From assembly GCA_030390025.1 (NCBI GenBank), contig CM059430.1, positions 32,488,001-32,552,000 of the forward strand: a stretch of DNA of 64,000 bases, written 5' to 3'. Under the pieces are notes generated by a model that saw nothing but the letters and a program-made list of their open reading frames with translations, was not told the DNA's origin and did not search any database. Of the stretch, positions 61,397-63,803 are shown in pieces; positions within the stretch are counted from its first letter, which is position 1; the number at the start of each line of letters is the position of its first letter. The position numbers were made by a program, and so were the translations under genes. Source of the DNA: Squalus acanthias. Its lineage: Eukaryota.

Positions 61397-62307
61397 ACGA
61401 AGCTTCTTTGAAGAGGCAAAAGAGACTGAATTTGGAACCTAGTACTTCACAGTTAAAAGCAGTTTGCTTCTTTACCAAAAATCTAACTTTATATAACAGC
61501 CCCTGTTGAAATATGCAAGGTAGCATTCGAACTCGGTGAAAGTCTGATCTTATTAAAGCCACACTGCTTTAGTAGGTTTGAAAGGACTTTCACAGTACTT
61601 CATTTCCTGAAAGTCATATCTGTTACACATTTGTGATTTAAAGGAGCAGGATACCAAAGCGAAGTGAAATTGTAACTTAAACTCTCCCTTCACAGGATGT
61701 TGCTCTTTTGTTTTTTAAAAAAAAGTCAATGATTGAGAGAGTGCGCTCCAACCCAGCCAGTACACCCCCTTGGTGCTCTGTGTAGGTCAAATGTAGTGAC
61801 AGATACAGCAGCAAGCCTCTCAATTCTGCCCCTGCAGTATGCACTGCCTGATAAAGGGGATCAGGCTGCAGGTGGGTGAGAGCAGTCATCCACTATCCTC
61901 AATTCAAGGTGCAAGCCTGGCAAAGATAACAGAGCAGCTCCAACAGTGGCTTTTAAACATTTTATTTGCATCTTATGTGTTGTAAGTTTACAAATAAGTT
62001 GAAAAATCATATTAGTTGTAAACAGAGTCTTTTTGGGGTTGAGCTGGCTCCAAGGTGATGTGCTTGATGATGGAAAATTGGAACTGAGTCAGTTCCTTGT
62101 GACAGACTCAGTAATGTGATACCTGAGCTGGGCAGGTTCACAGTACTCCAGGGCAGTACTGCTGCTTGACCAGCCAGTCCACCTCACCGATAGGGCCAGC
62201 TGCCCTAGCTCTTTAATGAGACATGGAGGAATAGAGCAATTACTGAGGATTGGGTTTCTTCACGTGAGTTCCAGATAACCCTGCAAGCCAGGGCCCCAAT
62301 AAGTAGG

Positions 62308-62536
62308 AAAAAAGAAAATACTGCAGATGCTGGAAATCTGAAATAAAAACAGAAAATGCTGGAGATACTCAGCAGGTCAGGCAGCATCTGTGAAGAGAGA
62401 AACAGAGTTAACGTTTCAGGTCGATGACCTTTCGTCAGAACTGACGAAGGGTCATCGACCTGAAACGTTAAGTCTGTTTCTCTCTTCACAGATGCTGCCT
62501 GACCTGCTGGGTATCTCCAGCATTTTCTGTTTTTAT
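62308..62536 (-). mobile_element. Palindromic non-autonomous Penelope-derived mini-element
   Basis: ~96-bp arms (62343-62438 / 62441-62536) around a 2-nt AA centre, and a ~35-nt unpaired tail at 62308-62342. Imperfect 14-bp TSD: CCCCAATAAGTAGG (62294-62307) / CCCTAATAAGAAGG (62537-62550). Confidence 0.85.
62406..62442 (-). ncRNA. Minimal type I hammerhead ribozyme
   Basis: Minus strand AGUU-CUGACGA-A-AGGUC(AUC)GACCU-GAA-ACGU-U-AACU, with stem I AGUU/AACU and palindromic ACGU stem III. The mirror copy on + (62441-62473) has the core but no stem I partner. Confidence 0.78.
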
Positions 62537-63803
62537 CCCTAATAAGAAGGGGTACCCTTACTGGACAAACATGGGGCTGTGCTAATAAGCTGTGGCTGGT
62601 TAAGCTCCAGTAGTACCTTACACACACTTGAGTCTCCCTAAGTTTTGGCAATCTAAACTCTCTCTGGACTTAGATAAGTGGGGTGAGCCCTTACAGGGAG
62701 AATGTGCACTCCATATTCGGCAAATAGAAACTCTACTTATATGGACCTCTCAGCCGTTTGACTTTGAGACTCTTACCCATAGTGAGAGGTTTCTGCAAAT
62801 GTCAGACCAAGCTGACCCCCAAAAAATTAGTAAGCAATTCTTCTGCTAATAGCATGGTATTGAGGTGCCCTGCTCCTTAAAGATGTGTTAACCTTTCGAT
62901 GAGACATCACGTGTACATACGTTTATGCACCAATGCAATTAGATTTCCAGCACTAGTTCTGGCTCTGTGATTGAGAGGAATTGGTGTCAGAAGGTTGATG
63001 TTGCTGTACTTTGTAAACAGAGCTTTGCCTGTCAAATGACAAAGTCTTCTGAAAATACTCAAACATCTTGAAAGAACAAAACACGAGCTTTAAGAAATCA
63101 ATTATTATCTTGTATGCTGACTATTATTTCCTAGTAATCAAGTGTTGATTATTGCTTGATAAACTTGCAATGATTTCTTCAGAATCATTAATCTTTCATT
63201 GTGGATATTAATAAAATCGAGTGCACTTGCTGTTAATGTCCATCATGAAAGCTGCTGCAAAATTGTGTAAAACCACCCCATAAGCAAACATAAGTAAAAA
63301 TATACTTTTATTTTATAAAATGATGATATTAAGGCAAAAATCTCATCTTGGATCTCAGAAGATGGTTATACACTGCTGTTGCAGTTTGACATCACCTGAA
63401 TCTCCTCAAGATTACTGCCTTTTAATTACTCCACATATTCATTATTTTTTTACTTCTCTGCTTTGGAAATACATTCTGAATATTGCAGTTTTAACTAGGC
63501 CAGTTACCCGGCAAACAAAAAGCAACATTTAAATGCATGCTACTAGAATTTAGTTTTTTTGTCTTACAATAAACAGATTATTGCACATCAGAATTATATT
63601 GGATTTTTAGGACTACACAGAGTTCTTTCCACTCTCCAGCCAACATGTTAATGATCTTGTAGTGTACATTTCATGCATGCTGCATTTGTATTTCATTCTT
63701 TGTTAGATAGGTACTAACTCGTATTATTTTATCTAATTTACTGGAAACATTTGTTGTATTCAGTGGGATTATAAAACCAATAAATGAGACTGGAAACTAT
63801 ATG

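Follow-up and report, generated by a model that had tools for sequence, protein, structure and literature searches.

Structure of the hairpin insertion

The window analysed here, a 64-kb stretch of shark DNA, contains a 229-nt hairpin-shaped insertion (62308-62536), made of a 35-nt tail and two 96-nt arms around a 2-nt loop, and a 2.8-kb Penelope-like element (PLE) of another family. The features of the hairpin and its flanks are as follows.

62294-62307, plus strand: target-site duplication, tail-side copy, 14 bp, with 2 mismatches against the other copy
62308-62342, minus strand: unpaired PLE-type tail, 35 nt, the RNA-sense strand's 3' end; the family ends at matching places
62324-62390, minus strand: predicted 9-bp stem (62390-62382 with 62332-62324) around the inner 3' end; z -2.8, 3/200 shuffles
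62343-62438, minus strand: sense arm, a pLTR end from hammerhead core to inner 3' end; matches the second copy in the window save for 3 changes private to that copy
62406-62442, minus strand: complete hammerhead motif of the minimal type I form, composed of stem I (AGUU/AACU), CUGACGA, an additional A, a stem II of 5 bp, GAA, the palindrome ACGU and U
62436-62443, plus strand: apex, reading CAG-AA-CTG here and CAG-TT-CTG on the sense strand; a micro-palindrome of 3 bp whose loop is 2 nt
62441-62536, plus strand: inverted arm, stopping at the inner 3' end and without tail; its core (62441-62469) lacks stem I
62537-62550, plus strand: target-site duplication on the inverted-arm side

The two arms are 97% complementary: the 3 differences in 96 nt are all private to the inverted arm and have so far been seen once. 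The centre reads TCGTCAG-AA-CTGACGA. The flanking 14-mers match at 12 of 14 positions, with the top score falling precisely at the element ends, and 3 of 970 random position pairs score equally well; with 2 mismatches in 14, the duplication is somewhat more diverged than the arms (3/96). The original prediction of a hairpin of about 230 bp with this centre, an unpaired tail of about 35 nt and an imperfect 14-bp target-site duplication was confirmed throughout.

The insertion combines three features of a PLE insertion unit, namely an adjacent inverted, 5'-truncated terminal-repeat copy, a tail of the 30-40-nt class and a target-site duplication. It has no reading frame of a mobile protein; one minus-strand frame (62301-62540) stays open across the entire hairpin. 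By analogy with the Anolis carolinensis element PAc (PMC11167929), the predicted 9-bp stem is a candidate RT-initiation stem-loop. Both families in the window can form such a stem (62324-62390 and 16070-16127), which starts 52 nt past the stem I start and closes inside the tail. It is significant in the small element only: in the 2.8-kb element, 37/200 shuffles do as well.

The hammerhead motif

A minimal-hammerhead descriptor (CUGANGA, an optional extra base, stem II of 4-8 bp, GAAA, a paired NN and UH) matches the window four times: at 62438 (minus), 62441 (plus), 16023 (plus) and 13464 (minus). A first-order Markov null gives 0.005 matches per window (200 simulated windows), none with a stem I of at least 3 bp. 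The two matches outside the hairpin both lie inside the PLE that bears an RT-EN frame.

The hairpin had been described as two back-to-back hammerhead cores. Two cores are indeed present, one per strand, but only the minus-strand core has a stem I (4 bp, vs 0 bp for the plus-strand core at 62441). Judged by sequence, the hairpin thus holds one complete hammerhead motif, not two. The cores lie on opposite strands, and a transcript carries one core plus its complement. According to the descriptor, the minus-strand motif would be cut between 62410 and 62409; the cleavage site anticipated after GUU at 62410 is correctly placed on this predicted motif.

None of the Rfam hammerhead families matched the motif at E-values of up to 5 and 10, which returned microRNA-like chance matches only. 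Rfam is expected to miss a motif without stem III. On motif and context, we call the minus-strand motif a putative ribozyme. Stem variation comes from three near-identical arms and from the 2.8-kb PLE, which has the same shape with different stems, and hence from two families only.

The full hairpin RNA folds at -177 kcal/mol. Stem II has a pairing probability of 0.92-0.96 in the single arm vs 0.00 in the hairpin RNA, where the ribozyme is predicted to be silent, sequestered within the long duplex. Because of this predicted silence, the ribozyme would be a passenger in the hairpin copy. A dimer of the minus-strand motif gives a nested, geometrically possible fold at -9.7 kcal/mol; the lowest-energy fold differs (-22.9 kcal/mol).

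A 2.8-kb Penelope-like element of another family

The second element, used here for comparison, comprises the following features.

13367-13378 and 16148-16159, plus strand: perfect 12-bp target duplication (0/970 null pairs)
13379-16147, plus strand: 5'-truncated PLE of the other family, with RT, C-x4-C-x2-C linker and GIY-YIG
13379-13957, minus strand: 579-bp inverted arm, a copy of 15529-16108 at 99.7%
13958-15784, plus strand: truncated RT-EN frame of 608 aa, with 91% identity to a protein of Heptranchias perlo
16019-16056, plus strand: minimal hammerhead motif with stem I UUGC/GUAA and AGCU palindrome

The hairpin was predicted to share its integration layout with this element, and the inverted arm, a tail of 36-39 nt and the perfect duplication bear this out. 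The same holds for the ribozyme grammar, which recurs with different stem sequences: the descriptor matches both elements, with an AGCU palindrome in the PLE and ACGU in the hairpin. The inverted arm of the PLE also contains a complete hammerhead motif (13431-13468). The 2.8-kb element is itself 5'-truncated, since its RT-EN frame has 608 aa vs 881-882 aa in full-length relatives. A linker between RT and GIY-YIG marks Neptune/Nematis PLEs (PMC8557442); residues 500-508 of the frame, CHGNLCKTC, follow the C-x2-5-C-xx-C pattern, and judged by this motif alone the element carries a Neptune/Nematis-type linker.

Comparing the hairpin element with the 2.8-kb element by blastn gave no similarity, in line with the expectation that they belong to different families. 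The likeness of their tail motifs, previously taken as a tie between the families, had to be rejected: it is within chance, being reached by 151/2000 shuffles of the tails and 911/2000 of the whole region 3' of the cut. On both counts the 2.8-kb element is, by sequence comparison, not the parent of the hairpin.

At its inversion junction the PLE reads TGGTC-AA-GACCA, a 5-bp palindrome with a 2-nt loop, like CAG-AA-CTG in the hairpin. As the PLE gives one such case, the micro-palindrome at both window inversions is a lead, not a rule. The pentamer of the PLE junction (13953-13964) recurs where the sense body starts (13960) and where the copied segment starts (15529), in keeping with a local snap-back and a subsequent slip.

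Abundance and ends of the hairpin family

Self-comparison of the window brought up a further copy of the hairpin family, absent from the original prediction.

16726-16858, minus strand: second copy, single arm plus tail, 97.7% identity over 133 nt

Its 5' end falls within 3 nt of the hairpin apex point, and no target duplication was found at its ends. The core is damaged (A9 to C; palindrome ACAU). The copy may be an independent truncation, or a hairpin minus one arm.

Contigs of four public sequencing runs, out of 23 listed, were aligned to 15400-17050 at 85% likeness: X5 and X22 (organism A), X6 (organism B) and X16 (organism G). X5 is a DNA run of the window's own organism; X5, X6 and X16 are DNA-like, and X22 is only guessed to be RNA. 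The loose ends and joints given below come from 24 of 2611 loose-end rows and 15 of 683 joints listed. In the three DNA-like runs, the depth summed over the arm reaches 3.5-17.7 million, vs about 13-46 for single-locus contigs; the ratio, 0.8-7 x 10^5, is an order of magnitude only and not a copy number. The family is very abundant, with roughly 10^5 arm equivalents. The terminal region of the 2.8-kb PLE is also several-fold deeper than its own ORF in X5 (5.35 M vs 0.70-1.68 M).

Among the rows listed, loose ends at 16722-16732, with mixed A/T-rich flanks, occur in all four runs and loose ends at 16759-16760 in at least two of the four; joints at 16758-16759 occur in all three DNA-like runs. 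The family has two 3' ends about 30-35 nt apart that bracket the tail, which is the PLE tail signature. The inverted arm of the hairpin ends at the position matching 16760, i.e. at the inner 3' end.

Behind 16858, the loose ends have a common consensus that begins with TGGA, vs TGAC for the hairpin arm. Contigs continuing past 16858 number 340 in X6, 330 in X16 and 50 in X22, with a consensus agreement of 0.42-0.55; this loose end is absent among the 6 X5 rows listed. Because contigs in three of the four runs run past the hammerhead into one common upstream sequence, the arm forms the 3' terminus of a longer element. As a lead, shark repeats of this kind may run upstream into sequence coding for GIY-YIG.

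Read by hand on the sense strand, the upstream consensus shows CTAAC, a pyrimidine run and CAG immediately before stem I, and looks like an intron acceptor. As it places CAG directly before stem I, CAG-TT-CTG belongs to the unfolded sequence; the apex micro-palindrome occurs there too, in the continuation past the apex read from contig loose ends. This upstream motif of the family was not found in the 64-kb window. In Drosophila virilis Penelope, helix I marks the end of an intron (PMC4209133). A comparable pyrimidine run plus CAG (16005-16013) is present in the 2.8-kb PLE, ending 9 nt before the core.

No joint at the hairpin apex is among the 15 of 683 joints listed, where hairpin contigs would be filed, fold-back handling being uncertain. 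The joints listed do include one at another place, 16803/16841, on opposite strands, and an X16 joint from 16858 to 16725 (depth 65.6) that may represent a tandem or head-to-tail unit.

Both hairpin arms and the second copy carry the minority base A at 16810/62393. G holds 77-95% of the depth at 16810 (4.10/5.16 M in X5, 7.49/9.70 M in X6 and 2.93/3.10 M in X16). The shared end point and the shared minority base fit a hot spot, and also a hairpin master. One X6 contig matches the right flank of the second copy from 16853 on, as an empty site or a paralogue would.

Another repeat (16385-16571 and 34540-34709) is very abundant as well, with a summed depth of 1-3 million at 16352-16463, and begins behind a short (ACA)n run. 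Both the small element and the PLE often have ends joined to it at 16388. We do not read this as a target preference: both repeats are abundant, and a rough hand estimate puts chance adjacency in a similar range.

Translated relatives and parent searches

A full HMMER search with the hairpin frame gave 22 matches at E-values of up to 0.001; 21 were kept, and P0023 (1956 aa, DUF11/VWA repeats) was dropped as a chance match. The relatives are 42-76% identical, mostly species-unassigned and biased by ORF calling. Ten were looked up: eight are Logan or JGI records and two are Heterodontus francisci gene models with arm pieces, one calpain-1-like and one PIP5K-like, in which these pieces are probably annotation artefacts or exonised repeats.

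Both arms lie in frame in three of the 21 relatives, their offsets being -3, -10 and -12 aa (0/200 shuffles each). One more is weakly two-armed at offset +10 (10/200 shuffles), and none of the 21 has offset 0. At the level of translated sequence, these relatives show that hairpins with other apex positions exist. FP-VL occurs in two of the 21, in agreement with the unfolded upstream sequence; P0006 has SS-VL across the apex, as the query does, with no significant antisense arm (21/200 shuffles as good).

Word-indexed protein searches with the hairpin reading frame found nothing, and the arm and tail frames match no N-terminus among 120 PLE proteins; the best match, to P0059, falls in the RT and was discarded as chance. 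No second PLE remnant was found by tblastn of the window. Pattern scans gave 0, 3 and 0 loci in viral contigs, the three being chance matches without similarity outside the pattern, and one locus in metagenomes, a chance 21-nt match in a bacterial-type gene; prokaryote genomes (0) and phages gave no match. The parent searches covered microbial, viral and protein collections, which are blind to shark DNA, and their blank carries no weight.

Origin of the hairpin

We consider the hairpin most likely to be a dead-on-arrival, 5'-truncated end left by an abundant Penelope-like element, with the fold-back probably made as it integrated. It is best read as a pLTR copy with the already described inverted arm and tail, joined at the native CAG-TT-CTG micro-palindrome. 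Several findings count against a truncated copy: both window copies stop within 3 nt of the same point and share a minority base, the 16858 loose end is absent among the 6 X5 rows listed, no coding parent was found in the collections searched, the translated relatives are diverged, and the duplication is somewhat more diverged than the arms.

Integration would proceed by target-primed reverse transcription from the tail. By analogy with Anolis PAc, an RT/GIY-YIG protein would nick both target strands about 14 bp apart and start cDNA at the outer 3' end, in the tail, and copying would halt at the hammerhead 5' edge after about 135 nt. The junction suggests that the cDNA end, CAG-AA-CTG, would then snap back on itself and be extended to the inner 3' end; alternatively, it would pair through the same 3 bp with a second cDNA begun at the inner site. 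Repair would leave the target duplication. Both routes yield the observed junction, which cannot separate them. PAc cleaves the two target strands, extends both and is a predicted dimer (PMC11167929), so that the second route is allowed. That the inverted arm stops precisely at the inner 3' end is what an inversion made during integration would give.

The truncated, inverted copy could also stem from a longer non-coding parent that is either pLTR-derived and retrozyme-like or a PLE with an internal deletion, and that a sister PLE mobilises in trans. This we regard as unlikely. The protein searches returned no coding parent, the X16 joint from 16858 to 16725 may be a head-to-tail unit, pLTR-derived non-LTR retrozymes occur in one chondrichthyan tested (bioRxiv 10.64898/2026.07.22.740005), and pLTRs suffice for trans mobilisation in Adineta vaga (PMC3846280). 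However, no tandem array was found in the window, the tandem-like joint is a single low-depth row, and the blank parent searches are weightless, since the collections are blind to shark DNA.

A more elaborate scheme starts from a young shark PLE subfamily with a fixed stop-and-fold point at the hammerhead 5' edge, where the intron-acceptor-like CTAAC/pyrimidine run/CAG overlaps stem I and forms CAG-TT-CTG; it would yield a 229-nt ribozyme-masking hairpin re-inserted in trans, and with it a class of PLE derivatives that are fold-back miniatures. The end point common to both window copies at the hammerhead 5' edge leaves some room for it, but we find this distinctly improbable.

Could the hairpin be a unit of its own, a fold-back miniature with a fixed apex that is transcribed and re-inserted by a PLE protein, the PLE counterpart of MITEs and SINEs? 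The 5' end and minority base common to both window copies, SS-VL at the apex position of P0006 and the very high family depth speak for it, but we hold it to be very improbable. The family continues into common upstream sequence in three of the four runs, the 15 of 683 joints listed include none at the apex, and 3/21 translated relatives have other apices; the antisense arm of P0006 is within the range of shuffles (21/200). Re-copied hairpin RNA would moreover need other means to end an arm at the inner 3' end, and the three private differences of the inverted arm have been seen once so far. The predicted non-coding, ribozyme-bearing miniature mobilised by a PLE thus stands as to its PLE origin, but a dedicated miniature with two working cores is not supported, given the upstream continuation in three of the four runs, the stop of the inverted arm at the inner 3' end and the single stem I, whose core is predicted to be sequestered in hairpin RNA.

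Finally, a DNA transposon of MITE type, with a chance likeness between its inverted repeats and a hammerhead, would account for the near-perfect inverted repeat and the missing Rfam hammerhead match, but is largely refuted and almost certainly wrong: the ends are asymmetric, one of them having the 35-nt tail, the duplication spans 14 bp, a single-arm copy and two 3' end classes exist, the only other descriptor matches lie in a PLE with an RT-EN frame, and the inverted repeats reaching both ends and the short fixed duplication of MITEs and DNA transposons are not found in the hairpin.

Comparison with known systems

The preferred reading, a truncated PLE end folded back on integration, uses parts that are known. 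A PLE unit comprises an inverted 5'-truncated copy and a 30-40-bp tail (PMC8557442). In A. vaga, Pen2a_Av and Pen3a_Av have 8-10-bp duplications and 18-38-bp palindromes at pLTR 5' ends, and the inverted pLTR is 37 bp shorter than the direct one (PMC3846280). Like these insertion units (PMC8557442, PMC3846280), the hairpin has a long target duplication, a hammerhead within the terminal repeat, a palindrome at the pLTR 5' edge and an inverted arm shorter by the tail (35 nt, vs 37 bp in Pen2a_Av). Unlike them, only the last 135 nt are present, so that the insertion is one hairpin; its duplication is 14 bp, vs 8-10 bp in A. vaga.

Minimal hammerheads, whether single or on opposite strands, have already been interpreted as truncated PLEs (Cervera and De la Pena 2014, PMC4209133). 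The hairpin motif resembles those of metazoan PLEs in its CUGANGA box, the extra base before stem II, the 4-bp stem I, a purine-rich stem II start of the G10.1-C11.1 type and palindromic positions 15.2-16.2 without loop 3. In that survey, too, motifs occur singly or with opposite-strand neighbours, and the D. virilis intron ends beside helix I, as suggested here. In contrast, stem II has 5 bp here vs 7-8 bp in Schistosoma, and the opposite-strand cores are 2 nt apart vs 100-700 bp. Sharks are not mentioned in the accessible part of the survey.

With the Poseidon PLE PAc (Frangieh et al. 2024, PMC11167929), the family shares two 3' ends bracketing the tail and, as predicted here, a stem-loop about 50-120 nt downstream of the hammerhead. 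Unlike in PAc, which has its ORF start in stem II and an AC-rich stem-loop, the hairpin region is U/C-rich and its frames match no PLE N-terminus. Hammerhead mutants leave PAc insertion in vitro unaffected (PMC11167929).

Animal non-LTR retrozymes (bioRxiv 10.64898/2026.07.22.740005) are likewise short, non-coding and pLTR-derived, with a type I hammerhead. They are, however, arranged head-to-tail with at least two units, each carrying a hammerhead on the same strand, whereas the hairpin is an inverted pair with one complete motif.

In sum, an inverted copy plus tail, 5'-terminal pLTR palindromes, solo pLTRs and minimal hammerheads on opposite strands have all been described before (PMC8557442, PMC3846280, PMC4209133). 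In the open literature searched, we found no description of the hairpin's shark family as a ribozyme carrier.

As an ordinary truncated copy, the hairpin adds little, its layout and ribozyme type having been published. Its interest lies in numbers: roughly 10^5 short ends per shark genome record where reverse transcription began, stopped and turned. Such ends could decide how the inverted arms of PLEs form, by snap-back or from two primed cDNAs, a point that the in vitro experiments on PAc did not settle. In the window, each of the two inversions is centred on a micro-palindrome with a 2-nt loop, which makes a testable rule. If a fixed-apex hairpin master did exist, PLEs would have a MITE-like class of parasites, and transcripts in sharks would contain numerous long stretches of double-stranded RNA in which ribozymes are masked.

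Other features of the window

The window holds 653 N, with one run inside 40561-41116 and no assembly gap near the hairpin. Two converging frames, 445-1155 (plus) and 2237-3064 (minus), the second with a DDE_Tnp_4 domain, are probably a Harbinger-type transposon remnant. A 182-bp degenerate palindrome at 59829-60010, 71% self-complementary and without hammerhead motif, is possibly an old MITE. Three related fragments (7527-8451, 45214-45372 and 60798-61393) contain RT C-terminal-like frames; they are probably CR1/L2-type LINE 3' ends. Self-comparison also shows short dispersed or inverted repeats at 4622-4797, 11249-11423 and 63805-63917, at 3474-3546/21160-21232 and at 30938-30995/31493-31548.
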